Positions 1,150 to 10,381 of a DNA stretch of 64,000 nucleotides are shown here, one piece after another (the stretch's first letter is position 1; each line of letters starts with the position of its first letter). This DNA comes from Blastocatellia bacterium (GTDB lineage Bacteria; Acidobacteriota; Blastocatellia; UBA7656). The notes beneath the pieces are model-generated. The model was given only the letters and a program-made list of their open reading frames with translations. It was not told where the DNA came from and made no database searches. The translations under genes and the position numbers were made by a program. The stretch covers positions 96,001 through 160,000 of the forward strand of contig CAVXWP010000013.1 of assembly GCA_963765495.1 (NCBI GenBank), given 5' to 3'.

Positions 1150-3171
1150 ATGAGGGTAAGAATTATGTGTAAAGTCAAAGTATTTCTGATCCTGGCGCTC
1201 TCATTTTCGCTTGCGCCTGTCGCATCATCCCGACCTCGAAAAATTATCAATATGCCGGTTGCCGCCGGGCAAAAGCCATCCGCCGCAAGGCAGAAGAAAT
1301 CCCGTAAGACCGTAGCTCCGCCTGACCGCTCGCTTCGCTCCCTCAACCGCCTCGCATCGCGTGAAGATTTCAATCGCCTTGCGCGCATATATTACGGCGG
1401 ACGGTTTTATGCCCTCCCTCACCTGATGTTCGCCATAGACCGGCAGGCGCACGACAGGGTCTATTACATAAACTCGAACGCGTTTAAGTTTCACAAGGAT
1501 TTTGTCAACGCTACCTATCTGTCGCTTGAGCGAGGCCGGGCATTTTATGAGAACAACTATCTGAAAAAGGACCGGCGTTTTTTGCTCGGCACGCTGGCCT
1601 ATCAGACGACGGTCGATAAATTCACATTTGAGTTCTGGGAAGGCGACCGCCTGAACTCTGACCTGATGGCCGAAGCCTACCGGGCGCTCAAGGAATCGTT
1701 TTTCGCGCCGCTTTATTTCAAGCCTAATTCGCTGGCTCAGGAAAGCGCCGCAACCGAATTAAACGCGGGCGCGGAGGATTCGGCAAGGATGCCCGTGCTT
1801 ACGGCAAGCGAGCTTGCGCGTGATCGCGCCTATGAACCGCTCAACCTCGGCGAAAGCATTGGCCAGCTTCGCATAATCGATCAGGTGGAGCCGGACACTG
1901 TCATAGACCGCAACCAGATAGTGATTTTCAAAGAGCCGCCCGTGCAACTGACGCCGCTATCGGGCATCATCACGACCGAACCGGCCTCGCCGCTTTCGCA
2001 CGTCAATCTGCTCGCCAAGTCCTGGTCAATACCAAACGCGCATATTAAGGACGCCGATAAACTTTTCAAGCGTCTCGAAGGCAAGTATGTCCGCCTCGAA
2101 GTGCGAGAGAAAGATTTCAGCCTTGAGCCTGCAAATGTGAGCGATGTAGAGAAGCGTCAGCAGCAGTGGGTAAAACGAGGCGATCTTGTGACCCCGCCCG
2201 CCGACCTCGAATACGACCGGATGAGTGACCTGAAAACTCAACGCGCGTCAGATAGTCGGCGGTTCGGAGCCAAGTCGGCCAACCTCGGCGAGATCATAAA
2301 CGCTCACCTTGCGGGCGTAGTCGTGCCGCCCGGCTTTGCGATACCGTTTCATTATTATCAGGAGTTTATTCGCAACAACGATCTGGAAGATCGTATAGCT
2401 CGCGCGGTCGAAGAAGACCGTTTTGTGCACGATCCAAAGTATCGCAAGGAGCGGCTCAGACAGGTGCGGCAATGGATTCAGGAGGGCAAACACGACGAGG
2501 CTTTCGCGGCAAAAGTGCTCGAAAAGGTTCATCGTGAATATCAGGGCAAGGGGCTTTTCGTGCGAAGCTCGACCAATGCAGAAGACCTGCCAAACTTCAG
2601 CGGGGCGGGGCTTTATACGACGGTGCCAAACGTGCGCACCGATCAACAGTTGATGGAGGCGATAAAGACCGTATGGGCTTCGGTGTGGAATTATGAAGCC
2701 TACGAGGCGCGCGAAAGCTTTGGCATGAATCATTTCGGCGTCTATCCGGCGGTGCTCGTTCAGGAAGGCATCAATGCAGACAGCGCGGGCGTTGCGATCA
2801 CTACCGATCCATTTAACCGCAGCAATCGAAGCGCGGTTTATGTAAACGCGAAACGCGGTCTCGGGATAAAAGTCGTCGAAGGCAAGCGTGTCGCCGAACA
2901 GGTGATCTATCGCCCGGATTCAAAGACGATTCAGGTATTGACCCGCTCCGGCGAAGATACGATGCTTGCCTTTGACGAGCACGGCGGTGTGAAAGAGGTA
3001 AGCGTAGATGAGCGCCGCGCGGTGCTGACCGACGAGATGATAAGAAGGCTTTCAAACGCGGCGCTCAAGATCGAGCGAGTCTTTGGCGGACACGATCAGG
3101 ACATCGAGTGGCTTTACCAGAGCGGACAGTTATATATAGTGCAGTCGCGGCCTTACATCGAAGGGAACTGA
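1150..3171 (+). CDS. PEP-utilizing/dikinase-family protein (His-swivel followed by PPDK_N ATP-grasp) with a predicted signal peptide
   Basis: Hydrophobic N-terminus VFLILALSFSLAPVASS; phospho-His motif SPLSHVNLLAKSWSIP; ATP-grasp motifs GAKSANLG, VRSSTNAEDLPNFSGAG, DIEW and IVQSRP. Confidence 0.75.
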   Translation: MRVRIMCKVKVFLILALSFSLAPVASSRPRKIINMPVAAGQKPSAARQKKSRKTVAPPDRSLRSLNRLASREDFNRLARIYYGGRFYALPHLMFAIDRQAHDRVYYINSNAFKFHKDFVNATYLSLERGRAFYENNYLKKDRRFLLGTLAYQTTVDKFTFEFWEGDRLNSDLMAEAYRALKESFFAPLYFKPNSLAQESAATELNAGAEDSARMPVLTASELARDRAYEPLNLGESIGQLRIIDQVEPDTVIDRNQIVIFKEPPVQLTPLSGIITTEPASPLSHVNLLAKSWSIPNAHIKDADKLFKRLEGKYVRLEVREKDFSLEPANVSDVEKRQQQWVKRGDLVTPPADLEYDRMSDLKTQRASDSRRFGAKSANLGEIINAHLAGVVVPPGFAIPFHYYQEFIRNNDLEDRIARAVEEDRFVHDPKYRKERLRQVRQWIQEGKHDEAFAAKVLEKVHREYQGKGLFVRSSTNAEDLPNFSGAGLYTTVPNVRTDQQLMEAIKTVWASVWNYEAYEARESFGMNHFGVYPAVLVQEGINADSAGVAITTDPFNRSNRSAVYVNAKRGLGIKVVEGKRVAEQVIYRPDSKTIQVLTRSGEDTMLAFDEHGGVKEVSVDERRAVLTDEMIRRLSNAALKIERVFGGHDQDIEWLYQSGQLYIVQSRPYIEGN

Positions 3172-3174
3172 CAG

Positions 3175-3268
3175 GTGATGCGTGATGCATGATGCGTGAT
3201 TTTAACGAGCATGGCGGTTGCAAACAAATCGCAAGCCTGACAAATCACGGATCACGCATCACGGATCA
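3175..3268. repeat. Heptamer tandem-repeat hairpin: (GTGATGC)n ... (ATCACGG/C)n
   Basis: Left arm 3175-3200 and complementary right arm 3244-3268, directly after a stop codon. Confidence 0.8.
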
Positions 3269-3301
3269 TTGAGCGTATTACGTATTATTCGAGTTAGAGA
3301 A

Positions 3302-6300
3302 GTGCTTAAAAAAATTCAAATCAGGATAACCTCTCCCGTTGCATCGCTCAGGCGGGCGCGCAGACCTCTGTTTCTACTGCTGCTTGTTACTCTGGTTGCG
3401 GGGACGGCTCGTATGCAGGGGCCTGTTGTCGCGCCGCCTCAGGTCGAAGGCGGCATCATCAGCGGAGTTGCGCAGGATGACAGGAGCGCGCCGCTTGCCG
3501 ATGTAAAGGTTTCCATTTCGTCGAAAGATTTTTCGGCATCCGTGCGTACGCAGGCCGACGGCAAATTCGAATTCCGCAATCTCAAACCGGATACTTATCG
3601 CATCACGGCCGAGGCGGTTGGCTTTCGCAAAGAGAGGACCACCGTAAATATCACACGGCCCGACGAAGCACTAAATCCTGTAATCAAGCTGAGTCCTTCT
3701 TCTTTGCACGTCACGGTCTTTGATGTAAATAACCAGCCACTCGACGGCGTGACCGTAGCCCTCTACACACAGGAGCGGGGAGCGCCGCCGTCGGTTGCTT
3801 CACGCACGACCACAGATGAGAGCGGCGACGCCTATTTTGGCAGACTGTCGCCGGACTCCTATCAGCTTACGGCGGCGCTGCGCGGGTATGAAGAGTATCG
3901 TAACGAGGTCTTTATCTCCTCCGGTATCACTACGGAACTGCCGCTTCAGCTTCTTGTCGCGCCCGTCATACCGATAAATGAAAAATTGACCGAGCGCTTC
4001 AGCGTGCCGAATCTGCCTTCGAAAAACGTTCGCTCGATCTTTCAGGACAGCGAAGGCTGGGTGTGGTTTGGAACCGATAGAGGCATAGCTCGATTCAACG
4101 GCGCGGATTTCAAATCGTCTGCTATGGCCGCTTCTCCGTACGAGCAACTGATAGGCGAAGACGTGCAATCAATAGCCGAAGACCAGCAGGGCACGGTCTG
4201 GCTTGGGACTCCGCGCGGAGTGCGGCGCATCAGCAAGGCAGGGGCGGAGGTTGGAGAGGCTCTGAGCGGGCGCGACGTGCAGGACATCAAGGTCGATTCG
4301 CGCGGCAACGTCTGGCTTGCGACCGCAAGCGGTGTCTTTATGTTTGACGGCAAGGATTTCGTCGCTTTCGGGCAATCCGAAGGACTGCCGTCAAACGATG
4401 TGAGGGCGATTGCCGAAGACAAAAACGGGAAAATCTGGATTGCGACTGCCAACGGCGCGGCTACGATTGACGAAGGCAAGGTGGAGGTCTTCAAACAAGG
4501 GGACGATCTTCGCGGCATATTCGTAGACCGGGCTGGCACGATCTGGTTTGCAACCGCGCGAGGCGTGCAGTTTTATGACGGCAAGCGCGTAAACAATCTG
4601 GATATAGCCGCCTTTAAAACCGCGAGAACTTCGGAGGATGCCGAGAGCGGAGCGCGTGCAATCAGCCAGGACAAACTCGGTCGCATGTGGTTTGCCCTCT
4701 TGAGAGGCGGCGCGCTGATTTACGATCCGGCCCGGCAAGAGTCCCAGCAGATGAGCCTGCTCGACCGCGACCACGTCGCCGTCATCTTTACCGGGCGCGA
4801 AGGAAATGTATGGTTTGGCACCGAAGATGGAGCGGTGCGCGCAGACCTTTACAGCTTTGTCAATTTCACAACCAGCCGGGGCCTTCCCGATAACGACGTC
4901 CGGGCCGTTGTAGAAATGCCGCCCTCCGGCAGCAGCGACATCGAAGGTCGTCTGTGGTTTGCCACCGCCGGAGGCGTGTCGCGCATGGAGGGCGGGCGCT
5001 TCGTGCCCGTAGAGGGATTCCGCCCAAATGTAGAGGTGCGCGCTATAGTCTTTGATCGCGCGGGCGAAGCATGGTTTGCAACCGGGCAGGGCGTCTTTCG
5101 ATCAAGCGGACAGACCCGCACGCAGATAAACGAAGGCAACGGGCTGGCTTCAAACAACGTCCACTATCTGACCCCTGTGACGGGCGGCTCCGCGATGATG
5201 TTTGCAACGGCAAAGGGCGTGAGCGTGTTTAAGAACGGCGAGATACACAGCCTTGAAGGGCTCGCGGGTTATGACGTGCGCCACATCTTCGAAGATGCGG
5301 ACGGACGGCTGTGGTTTGCCACCGCTCGCGGGATTGTAAACTTCAACCCCGCAACCGAAGATGCCAAACTGATAGACACCTCACGCGGACTTGCCGATAA
5401 CGATGCGCGATGGATCACCCGCTTTAACAATCAGTTGCTCGTGGCCACGCGCGCGGGCGTTCAGGTCTACAACGATCAGGATACCAACCGTCCATCATTC
5501 ACAACGCTTGACGGCGAGCCCGCAAACACGCTCTTCGTGGACCGCGACAACTTTCTGTGGATAGGGACCGATGACGGCAAGGTCGAGAAGTTTGCAGCAA
5601 TCGGCGGCTACATGATTCCGCAGGTATATTCGGGAGAGAACTATGCCCTGACGGGCAGCCGCATCAACTCGATCTATGAAGACAGCGAGGGCGAAATTTG
5701 GATTTCGACCGATAAAGGCGCGGTGCGCCATCTGCCGATACGTGTCGCGCCGCTTGCCCGCGTATCGCTTGAAGTAGACGGGCATCCCGATACGCCCTCC
5801 GAGTCAGGGACGTACTCACTTTCCTACGGTCGTCAACGATTGACGTTTCATTTTACGGCCGTCAGCATGAGCGGCGTGAGCATGAACGGCCAGGTGCGTT
5901 ATCTCTACCGCGTAAAATCCGATCAGGGAGAGCGGTGGTCGCTTTTGCCTGTTCAGCCGGGGGTCGAGCGCGAGGTAAACATCTTCAGCCTCGACGCGGG
6001 CACTCATACCTTTGAGCTGATGGCGCTCAACCGCGATCTCTACGGGAAAGACGCACCGGCGGCGGCTCTTTCGATTCGGGTAGGCCAGCCTTTCTGGAAA
6101 CGATGGTGGTTTTATGCTCTGGCGCTCGCGCTCATCGGTATCACCGTGGCTTTTGTAATCACAGCGCGCCGCGCGCGTGAACGCGAATATGTGCTGCCGA
6201 AAGAGTTGCGCTCTTACGTCGCAATCGAACCGAATCCTTATATTGTCGGAAATCCCATCCGCTCGGAAAACATGTTTTATGGCCGCGAGGACGATTTCCG

Positions 6301-7525
6301 CTACGTGCGCACAAAACTGGAAAGCGTCAACCAGGGTGTGATCATCGTCTTTTGCGGAGAGCGGCGAGTGGGCAAAAGCTCGATTCTTTATCAGGTGCTA
6401 AACGGGCGGCTCGGCCCGCGCTTTATCCCCGTCTTCGTTGACATGCAGGAGATGGTCATCGCAAACGACGCGGAGTTCTTTGCGCGCACTTCGCGCCTGA
6501 TAGCCGAAGCCGTCGCTCGCTCCGACGAAATGCTTGAAGCCGAAAAGAGCCAAAGCGAAAGGCTTGAAACCGAAAGGCTTGAAACCGAAAGGCTTGAAAG
6601 CGCCGCTTTGACAGGCGCACCCCGAGCAGGCGCGACTGCTCAAGCAGGCAGCCAGAGGGTTGCCGCAGGACGCGACATTCGCCCGATTGTGCGCGCACCT
6701 GCCTTCGATCAGGGCAATCCTTATCCGGTATTCATAGATTTTCTCGACGATGTGCTTCGAGACATAGGCGACCGCGCCCTGCTCATACTGATAGACGAGT
6801 ACGAGTTGATGGAAGCAAAAGTGGATGAAGGAAAACTCTCGCCCGAACTCTTTACATTCTTAGCCGGGCTTATGGACAACAAAGAGCGGCTGGCTTTTAT
6901 CTTCACCGGCTCGCGCCGTCTGGAAGAGCGCGACAAGAAATACTGGCGCGAATTGCTCCGTCGGTCGCTGTTTCGCAAGGTCGGATTCCTGTCTAAAAAA
7001 GACGCGATCCGATTGATAACCGAGCCTGTCGAGGGCCGGGTAGTTTACGGGCGCGGGGTGATCGAAGAGTTGCACCGGCTGACAGCCGGGCAGCCTTTCT
7101 ATGCGCAGGTTCTGTGCCAGAACACCGTAGATTACCTCAACGAACACGAGCAGAACTGGGTCACTTTAAGCGACCTCAACCACGTTGTCTCAGACATAGT
7201 GGACAATCCCTTACCGCAGATGATCTACATGTGGGACGGGCTGTCGGATGATGAGAAGCTGGCGCTTTCGCTTATGGCCGAGATGCTCCCGGACGGGCGG
7301 ACATTCGCCACGGCTCAGGAGTTGCGCTCATCGGTAAAGTCAAACGAGTATCCGGTCAATTTATCGGAAAACACTATCCGGGTGACGCTTGAAGAATTAT
7401 TCCGCCGCGAGATGGTCGAGAAAGACTCGGCCGACGGCTTCCGTTTCAAGATAGACCTCTTTCGATTGTGGATTCGCCGGTCGCATTCGATCTGGCAGGT
7501 AGTCAAAGAAGTGCGAACGCTTTGA
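3302..7525 (+). CDS. Transmembrane sensor: 2x carboxypeptidase-regulatory-like domains, Reg_prop beta-propellers, Y_Y_Y, TM helix and a cytoplasmic STAND-like P-loop NTPase
   Basis: Repeated 'I.ED..G.lW.gT..G' blades; TM WWFYALALALIGITVAFVI; NPY..G.P....FYGR; Walker A GERRVGKSS; Walker B LILIDEYE; GQP motif. Start moved from the 3218 TTG, which lies inside a repeat hairpin, to the in-frame GTG at 3302. Confidence 0.8.
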   Translation: MLKKIQIRITSPVASLRRARRPLFLLLLVTLVAGTARMQGPVVAPPQVEGGIISGVAQDDRSAPLADVKVSISSKDFSASVRTQADGKFEFRNLKPDTYRITAEAVGFRKERTTVNITRPDEALNPVIKLSPSSLHVTVFDVNNQPLDGVTVALYTQERGAPPSVASRTTTDESGDAYFGRLSPDSYQLTAALRGYEEYRNEVFISSGITTELPLQLLVAPVIPINEKLTERFSVPNLPSKNVRSIFQDSEGWVWFGTDRGIARFNGADFKSSAMAASPYEQLIGEDVQSIAEDQQGTVWLGTPRGVRRISKAGAEVGEALSGRDVQDIKVDSRGNVWLATASGVFMFDGKDFVAFGQSEGLPSNDVRAIAEDKNGKIWIATANGAATIDEGKVEVFKQGDDLRGIFVDRAGTIWFATARGVQFYDGKRVNNLDIAAFKTARTSEDAESGARAISQDKLGRMWFALLRGGALIYDPARQESQQMSLLDRDHVAVIFTGREGNVWFGTEDGAVRADLYSFVNFTTSRGLPDNDVRAVVEMPPSGSSDIEGRLWFATAGGVSRMEGGRFVPVEGFRPNVEVRAIVFDRAGEAWFATGQGVFRSSGQTRTQINEGNGLASNNVHYLTPVTGGSAMMFATAKGVSVFKNGEIHSLEGLAGYDVRHIFEDADGRLWFATARGIVNFNPATEDAKLIDTSRGLADNDARWITRFNNQLLVATRAGVQVYNDQDTNRPSFTTLDGEPANTLFVDRDNFLWIGTDDGKVEKFAAIGGYMIPQVYSGENYALTGSRINSIYEDSEGEIWISTDKGAVRHLPIRVAPLARVSLEVDGHPDTPSESGTYSLSYGRQRLTFHFTAVSMSGVSMNGQVRYLYRVKSDQGERWSLLPVQPGVEREVNIFSLDAGTHTFELMALNRDLYGKDAPAAALSIRVGQPFWKRWWFYALALALIGITVAFVITARRAREREYVLPKELRSYVAIEPNPYIVGNPIRSENMFYGREDDFRYVRTKLESVNQGVIIVFCGERRVGKSSILYQVLNGRLGPRFIPVFVDMQEMVIANDAEFFARTSRLIAEAVARSDEMLEAEKSQSERLETERLETERLESAALTGAPRAGATAQAGSQRVAAGRDIRPIVRAPAFDQGNPYPVFIDFLDDVLRDIGDRALLILIDEYELMEAKVDEGKLSPELFTFLAGLMDNKERLAFIFTGSRRLEERDKKYWRELLRRSLFRKVGFLSKKDAIRLITEPVEGRVVYGRGVIEELHRLTAGQPFYAQVLCQNTVDYLNEHEQNWVTLSDLNHVVSDIVDNPLPQMIYMWDGLSDDEKLALSLMAEMLPDGRTFATAQELRSSVKSNEYPVNLSENTIRVTLEELFRREMVEKDSADGFRFKIDLFRLWIRRSHSIWQVVKEVRTL
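6556..6600 (+). repeat. In-frame 15-bp tandem repeat x3 (ERLET)
   Basis: CGAAAGGCTTGAAAC x3 in a linker between Walker A and Walker B. Confidence 0.9.
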
Positions 7526-7551
7526 GTTGTAAAGCGAAGGTCAATCGGCGC

Positions 7552-7600
7552 AAAATACCAGTTCTTAAAAAATACCAGTTCTTAAAAAATACCAGTTCTT
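7552..7600 (+). repeat. 17-bp tandem repeat x3 abutting the kinase start codon
   Basis: AAAAAATACCAGTTCTT units (first copy 2 nt short) end immediately before ATG 7601. Confidence 0.9.
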
Positions 7601-9577
7601 ATGCAAGCAAACGAAATTCAACCACGCCCTAATCCCTACCTGAACCGGGTGGCGATCAAAGACCCGAAACAGTTTTTTGGACGCACAAGAGAAGTGGCCA
7701 AGATATTTTCGCGCATAGGCGCATCGCGCCCGCAATCGATCTCTGTCGTGGGCGAGCGGCGCATTGGCAAATCGAGCCTGCTTTATTACATCAATCATCC
7801 GGCAGTGCGCGCCCGATACCTCGACCGGAGTGATGCCTATACCTTTGTCTTTATCGACCTTCAGCAGAAGCGACGGCTCACGCTGACCGATTTTTTCAAG
7901 GAGTTGTTCGCGCTCATCGCAAGAGAGACCCGTGACGAATCCTTCACAACTCTTGATCCCGTTTTCGATTCCGTCCGCGTAATGCTTGAAGACTTTCGCC
8001 GCGAAGAGCGAAAGCTCATAGTGCTGTTCGACGAATTCGATGCCATCACGGCAAATAGCGCCTTTGATCTGGAGTTTTATTCTTTTCTGCGCTCAATCGC
8101 CAACAACTATGATGTAGCTTATGTGACAAGCTCGGCGCGCGATCTCCAGGAACTCTGCTACACGCAACTGATAGCCGACTCTCCGTTCTTCAACATCTTC
8201 ACAAATGTTTTTCTTCGCGCCTTCACGCGCAAGGAGGCGCTTGAGCTGATCACGCGACCCTCGGAAGAAGCCGCGCAACCGCTGGCAGGTTATGCCCGCC
8301 GCATCACGGAGATAGCCGGTTACTTTCCTTACTTTTTACAGATCGCCTGCTCGACCTATTACGACCACCTGCTTGAAAACGAGGGCAAGCTCGACCGCGA
8401 AGAGGTTGAAGCGACCTTTCTTGACGAAGCCAAAGGTCAGTTCCGGTTTATCTGGGATCACATGAACGAAGGGCAGCGCAGGTGCATACGCGATTTTCTC
8501 TCCGAAGGCCGCGTTGAAAAAGAGCAGGAGCACATCTACGAAGACCTCAAGCGCGCCGGTTATTTTATAGAAGATGATCGGGGGCCGCGAATATTTTCCA
8601 ATCTGTTTTCGACTGTAGTCTCGCGTCAGCGAGTCATCACAAGCGAACTGCGCGAAACCGACAGGGCAGTCCTCGCCGTGCACGACGGAAAGACCGAGAA
8701 GGTCCTGGCTCCGCCCCTGATCGAGCCCAAAGGTCACATAGGCCGTTTCGACATAGTGCGCTCTTTAGGCGCGGGCGGCATGGGCGAGATATTCGAAGCC
8801 TACGACACGGAGCTTCATCGCACGGTCGCAATAAAGGTACTGGCCTCGAAATATGTCGAGGACGATACGATGAAGCAGCGATTCCTCAGAGAAGCGCGCA
8901 TGGCATCGCAACTCAATCATCCGAATATCGCCACGATATACGAAATAGGTGAAGCGGCGGGCAATCCTTACATAATCATGGAGATGGTCGTGGGCGTAAC
9001 GCTTGCGGATCGTTTGATGAACGGCCCTTTCGATCTGAAATCCGTCGCAGACATCGGCATACAATCGGCTGAGGCGCTTGCGGAGGCTCACGAGCGCGGC
9101 GTGGTCCACCGCGACATCAAGACCTCGAACATTATGATAAATGATCGCGGGAAAGTGAAAGTGCTCGATTTCGGTCTGGCAAAACCCCTGCCTGTGGTAA
9201 ACAAGCAAAAGAGCAAGACCCGGCTCACGGAATCGGGCATACTGATCGGGACCGTGAATTATATGTCGCCCGAACAGGCTACGGGGCGAGGCGAGGTCAA
9301 TCACCTCTCCGACATATTCTCGCTGGGCGTCGTTTTATACGAGATAACCTGCGGGCGGCTGCCATTTGAAGGGGACACATACTTTCAGACTATCGAAGCG
9401 ATCAATAAACGCAAGCCCTCTCCCGTAAAGAAACACCGCGAAGACGCGCCTGATCGGCTCATAGCGATAATCGAGCGTATGCTTAAAAAAGACTCTGCCG
9501 AGCGCTATCAATCGGCCCATGATGTAGCGCAAGACCTGGCCCGGATCAACGCATCCGATTTGCAACAGGGTGAGTGA
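7601..9577 (+). CDS. STAND-like P-loop NTPase fused to a C-terminal Hanks-type Ser/Thr protein kinase
   Basis: NTPase: NPY...FFGR, GERRIGKSS, VLFDEFD, GYFPYFLQ. Kinase: GAGGMG, VAIK, HRDIKTSN, DFG, YMSPEQ, SDIFSLG. No TM segment seen. Confidence 0.88.
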   Translation: MQANEIQPRPNPYLNRVAIKDPKQFFGRTREVAKIFSRIGASRPQSISVVGERRIGKSSLLYYINHPAVRARYLDRSDAYTFVFIDLQQKRRLTLTDFFKELFALIARETRDESFTTLDPVFDSVRVMLEDFRREERKLIVLFDEFDAITANSAFDLEFYSFLRSIANNYDVAYVTSSARDLQELCYTQLIADSPFFNIFTNVFLRAFTRKEALELITRPSEEAAQPLAGYARRITEIAGYFPYFLQIACSTYYDHLLENEGKLDREEVEATFLDEAKGQFRFIWDHMNEGQRRCIRDFLSEGRVEKEQEHIYEDLKRAGYFIEDDRGPRIFSNLFSTVVSRQRVITSELRETDRAVLAVHDGKTEKVLAPPLIEPKGHIGRFDIVRSLGAGGMGEIFEAYDTELHRTVAIKVLASKYVEDDTMKQRFLREARMASQLNHPNIATIYEIGEAAGNPYIIMEMVVGVTLADRLMNGPFDLKSVADIGIQSAEALAEAHERGVVHRDIKTSNIMINDRGKVKVLDFGLAKPLPVVNKQKSKTRLTESGILIGTVNYMSPEQATGRGEVNHLSDIFSLGVVLYEITCGRLPFEGDTYFQTIEAINKRKPSPVKKHREDAPDRLIAIIERMLKKDSAERYQSAHDVAQDLARINASDLQQGE

Positions 9578-9591
9578 GACAAACAGGGATT

Positions 9592-9651
9592 TTTGACAGG
9601 ATTAACAGGGTTTAAAACGATTCAACCGTGTTCTCTGTTAATCCTGTCAAA
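9592..9651. repeat. REP-like hairpin built on the ACAGGATTA nonamer, between convergent genes
   Basis: Perfect 17-bp IR TTTGACAGGATTAACAG / CTGTTAATCCTGTCAAA. A related copy lies at 47470-47540. Confidence 0.85.
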
Positions 9652-9709
9652 GAACGCCCTCGAGCTTTTCAGCCGATAGGGCTTTTAACGAGCAGGCTCA
9701 TCTTTTCGA

Positions 9710-10381
9710 TCAGACTTCTCTGCGATGATGATCGGGGCTGATTGAAATCTCATCATCGTAAGTGGATTCGCGTGTGAACATCACAAAACCTACGCCGATA
9801 ATGACGAGCAACAGCACCAGCACGATCACCAGAAAATACCAGGGCAGATTTGGCTGATCCGGGTTATCGCGCCCGCCGATTGCCAGCAGCACAAACGGGC
9901 CTACGACCGCGCCAACCAGTCCCAGAACCAGTGCCACCCGGTCAATCATACCTTCCTGCGGCACTTTCACGTGCCAGCCGCTGTAGGCTCCAACGGTTGC
10001 CGCGATCAGCGAAAGCCCGAGCAAAAGCAGGCTTCGTCCGGCAAAGGCGAGATGCCCGGTCTCATCGCTGAGCAGAAGTCCGGTCACAAACTGAGGCTTG
10101 TTGGATTCGGGCAATATCAGATAGATCAGCGCGCTCAACACGAGCGTCGAAACCGCCACGATCACCGCGTCGCCTATTCGCAGTTCTTCGCTCATCCAGC
10201 CGATGACGAATCCCCCGACAAAGAACGTGCCCAGCGTTATCCCCAGAACATACAGCGATATAGTGCCCTCTCCGAGATTCGTCCCTGTAAAGGCAATGCC
10301 GGTGTAGATTAACGAGAGTATTACCTGAAGCCCGAACGTGAAGCCGAGCCCGACTAACATCCATTTGATACGATCCTTCAT
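9710..10381 (-). CDS. Hypothetical polytopic membrane protein
   Basis: About 6 hydrophobic segments; GGAGG RBS before ATG 10381 (MKDRIKW). Confidence 0.75.
   Translation of the reverse strand: MKDRIKWMLVGLGFTFGLQVILSLIYTGIAFTGTNLGEGTISLYVLGITLGTFFVGGFVIGWMSEELRIGDAVIVAVSTLVLSALIYLILPESNKPQFVTGLLLSDETGHLAFAGRSLLLLGLSLIAATVGAYSGWHVKVPQEGMIDRVALVLGLVGAVVGPFVLLAIGGRDNPDQPNLPWYFLVIVLVLLLVIIGVGFVMFTRESTYDDEISISPDHHRREV

Follow-up and report, generated by a model that had tools for sequence, protein, structure and literature searches.

We analysed a 64,000-nucleotide stretch of DNA from a Blastocatellia bacterium (assembly GCA_963765495.1, contig CAVXWP010000013.1, positions 96,001 to 160,000 of the forward strand), hereafter the window, in which two adjacent genes may encode a split receptor kinase. 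The genes are two open reading frames (ORFs) on the plus strand, 75 bp apart, with gene 1 at 3218/3302-7525 and gene 2 at 7601-9577 (window positions, as for all coordinates below unless a relative is named). In brief, gene 1 (3302..7525) encodes a single-pass membrane receptor-NTPase (nucleoside triphosphatase) of 1407 amino acids, and gene 2 (7601..9577) encodes a soluble fusion of an nSTAND2 NTPase and a Ser/Thr kinase, 658 amino acids long; both assignments draw on the ORFs, on Pfam and on hydropathy. We suggest that a Bacteroides-type glycan sensor would here be wired to a kinase via two paralogous ATP-binding switches located on separate proteins, a wiring that recurs with other sensors.

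The receptor-NTPase and the NTPase-kinase

The product of gene 1 begins with a signal-peptide-like N-terminus (3302..3415, translation read by eye), in which an Arg-rich n-region is followed by PLFLLLLVTLVAG. Two CarboxypepD_reg domains, which are transthyretin-like beta-sandwiches, come next (3458..3907; PF13620, E 3.9e-26, 91.6 bits, in two stretches), followed by 14 Reg_prop blades at 4058..5734 (PF07494, E 2.4e-53, 171.6 bits). The 14 blade motifs are 36-48 amino acids apart, consistent with two seven-bladed beta-propellers. The best sequence matches in the PDB are 3v9f (E 2.4e-40) and 4a2l (E 7e-35), with 3va6/3ott also matched (range to 4.7e-20), and these are periplasmic domains of hybrid two-component sensors. 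A juxtamembrane Ig-like domain (5744..6091) is followed by a single transmembrane helix, FYALALALIGITVAFVITA, at 6110..6166 (amino acids 937-955 counted from 3302; Kyte-Doolittle mean 2.36 over 19 amino acids in a hydropathy scan).

The initial annotation of the locus had recognised in gene 1 the double beta-propeller, Y_Y_Y and transmembrane module typical of hybrid two-component sensors. The Pfam matches, the 14 blades, the PDB matches and the hydropathy all agree with it as regards the propellers and the helix. The Y_Y_Y domain is indirectly supported: Pfam gives no direct match to it in gene 1, even at E<=5, but the juxtamembrane segment is collinear with the Y_Y_Y stretch of a relative, P0149 (BLASTP E 2e-22; Y_Y_Y of P0149 in Pfam, E 3.5e-11), and the Ig-like domain is its putative counterpart. 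The claim that the cytoplasmic part is a P-loop NTPase with no histidine kinase or effector domain also held in the Pfam searches. At E<=0.01 the whole protein gave no match to HisKA, HATPase_c, REC or any other effector domain, and even at E<=5 the cytoplasmic part gave none to a HisKA, HATPase_c, receiver or DNA-binding domain. In NCBIfam no model scores above its cut-off for the product of either gene. Gene 1 is like the Bacteroides hybrid two-component sensors (3v9f, 4a2l/4a2m, 3va6/3ott) in its double Reg_prop propeller, Y_Y_Y-type Ig domain and transmembrane helix, and unlike them in that a P-loop NTPase replaces HisKA, HATPase_c, the receiver and the AraC output, and that two extra CarboxypepD_reg domains stand at the N-terminus.

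The cytoplasmic NTPase module of gene 1 (6224..7522) consists of a P-loop domain, a helical domain and a winged helix, as delimited by alignments, an AlphaFold2 model and Foldseek. It contains the Walker A motif GERRVGKSS at 6356-6382 and the Walker B motif LLILIDEY at 6779-6802. Residues G45, K51, D191 and E192 (domain numbering) are invariant across 27 gene-1-type sequences, and the Pro of the GQP motif is nearly invariant in the same alignment. Pfam matches of the 433 cytoplasmic amino acids to ATPase_2, AAA_22 and nSTAND2 are all below threshold, and the isolated NTPase domain matches AAA_14 with 29.3 bits (cut-off 27). The AlphaFold2 model of the module shows the three domains with a mean predicted local distance difference test (pLDDT) score of 89.9 and a predicted template modelling score of 0.83. 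Between Walker A and Walker B lies a low-complexity insert of variable length (6526..6679), made of ERLET repeats and a disordered loop. The repeats are encoded by a 15-bp tandem repeat at 6526-6599, pLDDT falls below 50 at model residues 140-152, and alignments to relatives split at this insert.

STAND NTPases (signal transduction ATPases with numerous domains) reportedly consist of a P-loop NTPase, a helical domain and a winged helix with a GxP-type motif, and are said to be laid out as effector, NTPase and C-terminal repeat sensor in one cytoplasmic chain. The term STAND-like, used for both NTPases in the initial annotation, is apt for gene 1 as far as the predicted three-part fold and the conserved GxP-type Pro are concerned. 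The closest solved folds are different ones, however: Foldseek ranks the archaeal ATPase_2 proteins 2fna and 2qen first, then ORC/Cdc6, and only then the NB-ARC domains of plant NRC helper NLRs (nucleotide-binding leucine-rich repeat receptors), the top matches having E values of 5.7e-12 to 1e-8, target-normalised TM-scores of up to 0.64 and identities of 10-16%. Gene 1 shares its P-loop, helical and winged-helix fold with ATPase_2 (SSO1545, 2fna; PAB2304, 2qen), ORC/Cdc6 and the NB-ARC of NRC2/3/4, but unlike these its module is membrane anchored and paired with a kinase fusion. It also departs from the classical STAND layout, since the sensor of gene 1 is N-terminal and extracytoplasmic and the effector resides on the other protein. 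Pfam found no repeats after the NTPase of either gene.

Gene 2 starts with an nSTAND2 NTPase domain (amino acids 41-293, 7721..8479), which matches positions 1-267 of the 279 in PF20702 with 226.9 bits (E 3.9e-67) and is the only match to this family in the whole genome. Its Walker A motif is GERRIGKSS (7751-7777) and its Walker B motif LIVLFDEF (8015-8038), and R164 and P243 are invariant across 26 gene-2-type sequences. The C-terminal part is a Hanks-type kinase domain (amino acids 384-640, 8750..9520; PF00069, 170 bits with a cut-off of 31.7, E 8.3e-50) in which the G-loop, VAIK, HRDIKTSN, DFG and SPE motifs are all found. A hydropathy scan of gene 2 gave no transmembrane or hydrophobic segment, so that the earlier reading of an intact soluble kinase stands. 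Like PknB/PrkC-type receptor kinases, the system has a Hanks-type kinase as the cytoplasmic output of an extracytoplasmic sensor; the NCBIfam model PknB_PASTA_kin matches the kinase domain of gene 2 only (292 bits, below its cut-off of 450). Unlike in PknB/PrkC, the kinase protein has neither a transmembrane helix nor a PASTA domain, and sensor and kinase are on separate polypeptides which, as we read them, would be joined via the two NTPases. A PADLOC search gave no match for gene 1 and only generic kinase-domain matches for gene 2 (PD-T4-6, mad6, Stk2), and an assignment to defence was not adopted on that account.

The two NTPases are homologous, as had been proposed, and far beyond chance. 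Pairwise BLASTP aligns them with E values of 6e-12 and 1e-9, and a profile-profile comparison (hhalign) of the 27 gene-1-type and 26 gene-2-type sequences gives a probability of 99.9% and E 5e-35 over 281 columns. Neither NTPase has any other detectable relative in the 7.3 Mb genome. Walker A (G..R.GK[ST]S) and the DE of Walker B are invariant in both alignments, and with these motifs intact both NTPases look active. Because the gene 1 NTPase falls below the threshold of PF20702, yet is homologous to the gene 2 family by hhalign, and because a gene-1-type relative (P0170) passes PF20702 with 53 bits, we treat it as a probable sister family of nSTAND2.

Conservation and recurrence of the pair

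We surveyed 121 genomes sampled from the same class, in families labelled f1 to f10. Orthologues of gene 1 were found in 24/24 genomes of f1, 4/4 of f2, 1/1 of f3, 13/14 of f6 and 9/9 of f9, and orthologues of gene 2 in 24/24, 4/4, 1/1, 14/14 and 9/9 genomes of the same families. Neither gene has an orthologue in f4 (28 genomes), f7 (3), f8 (8) or f10 (1), and f5 holds distant paralogues only (8 of 28 genomes for each query, six genomes for both). Gene 1 was thus found in 51 of the 52 genomes that have gene 2, the exception being a genome that is 85% complete. By a tally of coordinates the genes share a contig and strand and are no more than 5.4 kb apart in 31 of the 51 genomes (f1 21/24, f2 2/4, f3 0/1, f9 8/9, f6 0/13). 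Three f6 genomes that consist of two contigs each have kept both genes at a distance of 0.86-1.38 Mb.

The identity of the gene 1 NTPase to its orthologues is 72-79% in f1 and 56-67% elsewhere, and that of the gene 2 NTPase 75-84% in f1 and 53-58% elsewhere. For both genes identity thus drops with taxonomic distance, which fits vertical descent. Between families the NTPase retains 53-59% identity and the kinase 50-58%, but the faster-evolving sensor part only 30-35%. In 19 loci that were fetched, the orthologues proved to be full length and to include the kinase.

The gene-1-type alignment was also used for a pattern search of species-representative genomes, which gave 152 confirmed loci. Of these, 80 were kept, and loci with at least 2.5 kb of downstream sequence were counted as testable. 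Blastocatellia-like loci make up 58 of the 80, 46 being testable, and a same-strand NTPase of the gene 2 type follows downstream in 38 of the 46, within 300 bp in 28 cases. The remaining 22 loci carry other phylum labels and are 38-45% identical; 16 are testable and 15 of the 16 have a same-strand downstream partner. The record labels include Glassbacteria, Gemmatimonadales, Calditrichota, KSB1, Krumholzibacteriota, Eisenbacteria, Fibrobacteraceae and Deferribacteres, plus several implausible ones; labels such as 'uncultured Clostridia', 'archaeon', 'Patescibacteria' and 'Actinomycetota' look unreliable (e.g. L043, L054, L103, L113 and L090). The conservation of the gene neighbourhood, proposed as a check when the pair was first noted, is therefore seen both within the class and under other phylum labels.

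In the other phyla most gene-1-type proteins have a hydrophobic segment that separates the NTPase from a different sensor. One layout runs from a signal peptide or transmembrane helix through TPR repeats and a transmembrane helix to the NTPase. The other is inverted, with an N-terminal NTPase, a transmembrane helix near amino acids 410-435 and then PEGA or TPR domains. In two of the 22 proteins (L100 and L102) the scan showed no hydrophobic segment at the expected place. The partner in these phyla has the swapped order, kinase and then nSTAND2. All partner ORFs but two also match the kinase; the partners of L078 and L094 are split over several ORFs. A strict pattern finds the kinase motifs HRD..N and DFG in 47 of 52 partners; in the remaining five the motifs read HRDL[ST]..N and D[FL]G.

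When the profile of the receptor-side NTPase was searched against 1.84 billion cluster representatives, 4,883 proteins matched at E<=1e-30. These are 350-2,700 amino acids long, and the module occupies one end or the other. Five of them were inspected, and three have recognisable sensor-type modules, namely Laminin_G with CarboxypepD_reg, Reg_prop and Y_Y_Y; WD40 with Reg_prop; and TPR with Peripla_BP_6. The other two have Reg_prop only (P0178) and none (P0247).

A predicted NTPase complex and its interpretation

The initial annotation had proposed that the two NTPases hetero-oligomerise and had suggested modelling them. One hetero-complex model of the two domains, built from custom alignments of each, supports this in silico, with an ipSAE (interaction prediction score from aligned errors) of 0.64 (runs 0.65, 0.62 and 0.64) against 0.00 for the best of three controls. 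The partner pLDDT is at least 78, and at least 75% of the contacts are common to the runs. When the tool was calibrated, 58 of 80 solved complexes scored this high, as did 2 of 110 mismatched pairs; these figures are only roughly valid here owing to the custom alignments. On the side of gene 1 the predicted interface comprises the P-loop (R48 and S52 of the domain), the Walker B region and the conserved N-terminal NPY motif. On the side of gene 2 it comprises residues 30-48, 157-169 and 194-204, including the invariant R164, which faces the ATP site of gene 1. The modelled interface looks like an AAA+-type front-to-back contact, and the model supports hetero-binding of the NTPase modules. Invariant residues at the interface were also counted by hand (8 of 36 in chain 1 and 6 of 45 in chain 2, with about 3 and 4 expected), an enrichment too weak to be used.

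Based on the domain anatomy, the homology, the intact catalytic motifs, the long-term co-inheritance and the recurrence with swapped sensors and permuted fusions, we suggest that genes 1 and 2 encode one two-protein transmembrane signalling module, a split receptor kinase. In brief, gene 1 would be a single-pass receptor whose extracytoplasmic part resembles the glycan sensors of Bacteroides hybrid two-component systems and whose cytoplasmic part is an ATP-binding switch, and gene 2 would be a soluble Ser/Thr kinase carried on a paralogous switch (nSTAND2). The two NTPases are predicted to bind each other, probably as a nucleotide-dependent hetero-oligomer in which a surface of one subunit covers the ATP site of the other, and this hetero-oligomer would tether the kinase to the receptor. 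Binding of a ligand, possibly a glycan or an envelope component, may cluster or otherwise alter the receptor and with it the assembly or the ATPase cycle of the hetero-oligomer. The altered hetero-oligomer would then switch the kinase, presumably activating it, and lead to phosphorylation of cytoplasmic targets. We put the probability of this full outside-in model at roughly 0.58, and hold the functional partnership of the two genes as such with higher confidence.

Several observations weigh against the model. The pair is unlinked in all 13 f6 genomes, so linkage is not obligatory, and 8 of the 46 testable Blastocatellia-like loci have no partner inside 7 kb. In three f1 relatives selfish cassettes separate the orthologues of gene 1 and gene 2. 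Two of these encode an EcoRV-like endonuclease and a D12 adenine methyltransferase and one a BrnT toxin with a small partner ORF (L022:7331-9069, L023:7026-8914 and L020:7261-7831), which also means that the spacer tolerates selfish cassettes. Co-occurrence in one class could be explained by few events of gain and loss, related genomes being non-independent. The divergences of the two partners are correlated across 65 loci (Mantel r 0.97, reached by 0/999 permutations), a value that is inflated by shared phylogeny. The doubtful phylum labels sit on clear Blastocatellia- or Gemmatimonadales-type orthologues, and the count of phyla is approximate. As to the proteins, the transmembrane helices and the signal peptide were assigned by hydropathy scan and sequence reading only. 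The isolated gene 1 NTPase reaches 17.8 bits with nSTAND2 (PF20702; E 0.0021), below the cut-off of 24. In the hhalign alignment gene 1 has Ala at the column of R164 of gene 2, where some gene-1-type members have Arg, and at this column gene 1 shows no evident conserved arginine that could act in trans. The score of the complex may reflect generic packing of homologous AAA+/STAND-like modules, and a homodimer might score equally well. It should also be noted that the only published reading of paired nSTAND2 operons, as given in the main text of PMC8195603, is that of conflict systems.

That paper (Kaur, Iyer, Burroughs and Aravind, eLife 2021) describes in its main text two-gene nSTAND2 operons with variable domains on a constant NTPase core. 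Its authors predicted that the two NTPases form a hetero-multimer. One of them has eroded NTP-binding motifs and bears a GT4 or HEPN effector, and a conserved arginine finger in each protein counts among the traits of this type. The operons are described as mobile and were read as counter-invader systems. The locus in the window is like these operons in having two adjacent genes, each with an NTPase of this kind, on the same strand with a 75-bp spacer. It is unlike the operons of that main text in that both NTPases are intact, including the P-loop of the kinase-bearing protein; one partner is a transmembrane receptor and the other a fusion to a Ser/Thr kinase; Pfam finds no GT4 or HEPN domain in either protein; and, where the published operons are mobile and patchy, one copy is found in (nearly) all sampled genomes of five families, with identity that tracks taxonomy.

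Whether the pair is already a described system, a question raised with the first description of the locus, has a two-part answer. The principle of pairing is not new, since the hetero-multimer of paired nSTAND2 NTPases is already in print as a prediction. The main text of PMC8195603 mentions no version with a receptor, PEGA or kinase, although its supplementary listings might, and compared with that text the transmembrane receptor-kinase form, the two live NTPases, the vertical inheritance and the breadth are additions. The passages of a 2026 STAND survey (PMC13581612) that we consulted mention no receptor-NTPase/NTPase-kinase module, although its supplements might. Full-text literature searches for such a module turned up only the account of paired operons in PMC8195603 and no description of the module itself.

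Both NTPases keep their hydrolysis motifs, which a pure binding adaptor would not need, and this would also suit a machine that works from the inside out. A membrane-anchored, ATP-driven assembly would then position, remodel or assemble the beta-sandwich and propeller domains at the surface, and the kinase would regulate it, for instance by phosphorylating gene 1. The external modules (CarboxypepD_reg, PEGA, the FG-GAP neighbours and the extra PEGA gene) are indeed typical of cell-surface proteins, and the domains freely occur in either order with respect to the membrane. We nevertheless consider such a machine unlikely. The external domains match known ligand sensors, those of the hybrid two-component systems in gene 1 and Peripla_BP_6, TPR and Y_Y_Y in relatives; a single transmembrane helix is a poor conduit for mechanical work; and what stays constant in the module across phyla is the kinase, as would be expected if it is the output.

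The published operons suggest another possibility, slightly less probable still, in which the pair is a counter-invader system of the kind described in 2021. The two NTPases together would serve as the sensor for infection or envelope damage, and the kinase as an effector that shuts down either the cell or the invader, as kinases do in antiphage systems based on them. Gene 2 clearly belongs to nSTAND2, and the main text of PMC8195603 describes this family in conflict contexts only. Its kinase domain has the PADLOC matches given above, but they cover the generic kinase domain only and there are none in gene 1. The restriction-modification and BrnT cassettes found between the genes in three relatives would also fit.

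A further point in favour of conflict is a second, patchy type of paralogous pair in the same class, found in f5 and in scattered f1 and f6 genomes (L008-L018, e.g. L014:4175-9250 and L012:5676-11763). In these a short gene-2-like NTPase of 299-396 amino acids, with no effector, lies immediately upstream of a gene-1-like protein. Ten of the 11 gene-1-like proteins have 2-5 glycine-rich hydrophobic segments in their first 235 amino acids, the eleventh (L015) being a HEAT-repeat protein, and in L012 a separate kinase gene precedes the short NTPase. The patchy pairs resemble the published mobile conflict operons and are possibly conflict-type relatives of the module. Those with several transmembrane segments occur in the same class as the orthologues and yet show the greatest distance in both partners, with 28% identity in each, which indicates that the pair duplicated and diverged as a unit.

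The pair in the window behaves otherwise. It is single-copy and vertical in five families (50-84% identity) and forms part of a syntenic block in f1; it is neither mobile nor patchy; in contrast to the published system it has two intact NTPases; and the sensor is extracytoplasmic and of the hybrid two-component type. The neighbours are housekeeping or envelope genes. In f1 the flanks are syntenic, with a PPDK_N-domain protein upstream in several relatives and a 242-amino-acid ORF and FeoB downstream. No third gene is conserved in Blastocatellia, where the intervening genes are restriction-modification or BrnT cassettes or small unannotated ORFs. In nine TPR-type loci (L097-L109, e.g. L099:215-15135) a gene for a secreted ThuA-like protein separates the receptor and kinase genes. 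The cluster there encodes an FG-GAP/dockerin protein, a small ORF, a FadL-like porin, the receptor-NTPase, the ThuA-like protein, the kinase-nSTAND2 protein, CdaA, a CdaR-like YbbR protein and a VanZ-like protein. The linkage to cdaA/cdaR (cyclic di-AMP) may be functional, or may be synteny among close relatives. In seven PEGA-type loci the neighbouring gene encodes an extra PEGA protein. The surroundings of the TPR and PEGA types are envelope contexts rather than defence islands.

It is improbable that the two proteins act independently, each NTPase homo-oligomerising and gene 1 signalling by other means (e.g. with its winged helix on DNA, ToxR-like) while adjacency merely reflects tandem duplication: the genes are unlinked in f6, gene 1 does end in a winged-helix-like element and a paralogue has weak MarR-like matches, but the pair persists under different phylum labels even where the sensor is swapped, the topology inverted and the kinase fusion permuted, the genes co-occur in nearly all genomes that have gene 2, the hetero-complex model passes its controls, and in the closest folds the winged helix is integral to the NTPase module.

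Transmembrane signalling in bacteria is known mainly via histidine kinases, chemoreceptors, anti-sigma factors and single-chain Ser/Thr kinases. Returning to the split receptor kinase, we speculate that the locus could be one member of a very large and so far unrecognised class of modular receptors, which carry almost any sensor in either orientation, end in an NTPase switch and would signal by nucleotide-dependent hetero-oligomerisation with a paralogous, soluble, output-bearing NTPase. Such a membrane-anchored two-chain 'signalosome' would be distinct from two-component systems and from single-chain receptor kinases, and evolutionarily continuous with the nSTAND2 conflict operons. We offer this generalisation tentatively, with odds a little short of even. 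If the model of the split receptor kinase is correct, NTP-dependent hetero-oligomerisation across a split between receptor and kinase would be a new coupling principle, and thousands of proteins that bear no annotation beyond 'two-component regulator propeller' or 'AAA ATPase' would gain a function. In sensor/helper NLR pairs, which are a functional analogy, two paralogous NTPases split sensing and output. Immune-type nSTAND2 modules would, on this model, be linked to housekeeping signalling, in parallel with such NLR pairs.

Gene start, non-coding elements and upstream gene

The reading frame of gene 1 stays open up to an alternative TTG start at 3218. We took the GTG at 3302 as the start, because translation from the TTG would traverse a strong hairpin; the resulting 1407 amino acids equal in length the database gene call P0004. 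The hairpin (3174..3270) is long and imperfect and lies between the stop of the upstream gene (3171) and the start of gene 1. Its arms are two inverted arrays of 7-bp repeats, and the RNA fold has an energy of -46.3 kcal/mol (z -4.78), with 0/200 shuffles equally stable. It may act as a terminator for the upstream gene or as a structure in the 5' leader of gene 1.

A scan for promoters and terminators from 3000 to 9900 gave counts at chance level and nothing within the spacer that separates the two genes. Most of its 75 bp are taken up by a perfect 17-bp tandem repeat of 2.9 copies (7552..7601; Tandem Repeats Finder score 100), which extends into the ATG of gene 2. A dispersed element was considered for this repeat and ruled out, as its sole occurrence in the genome is this spacer. 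The repeat may be an insertion scar or a regulatory site, an idea prompted by the cassettes inserted into the equivalent spacer of relatives.

The gene upstream of the hairpin (1150-3171) encodes a protein of 673 amino acids with the unusual combination of a signal-peptide-like start and a PPDK_N domain (PEP-utilising, ATP-grasp).

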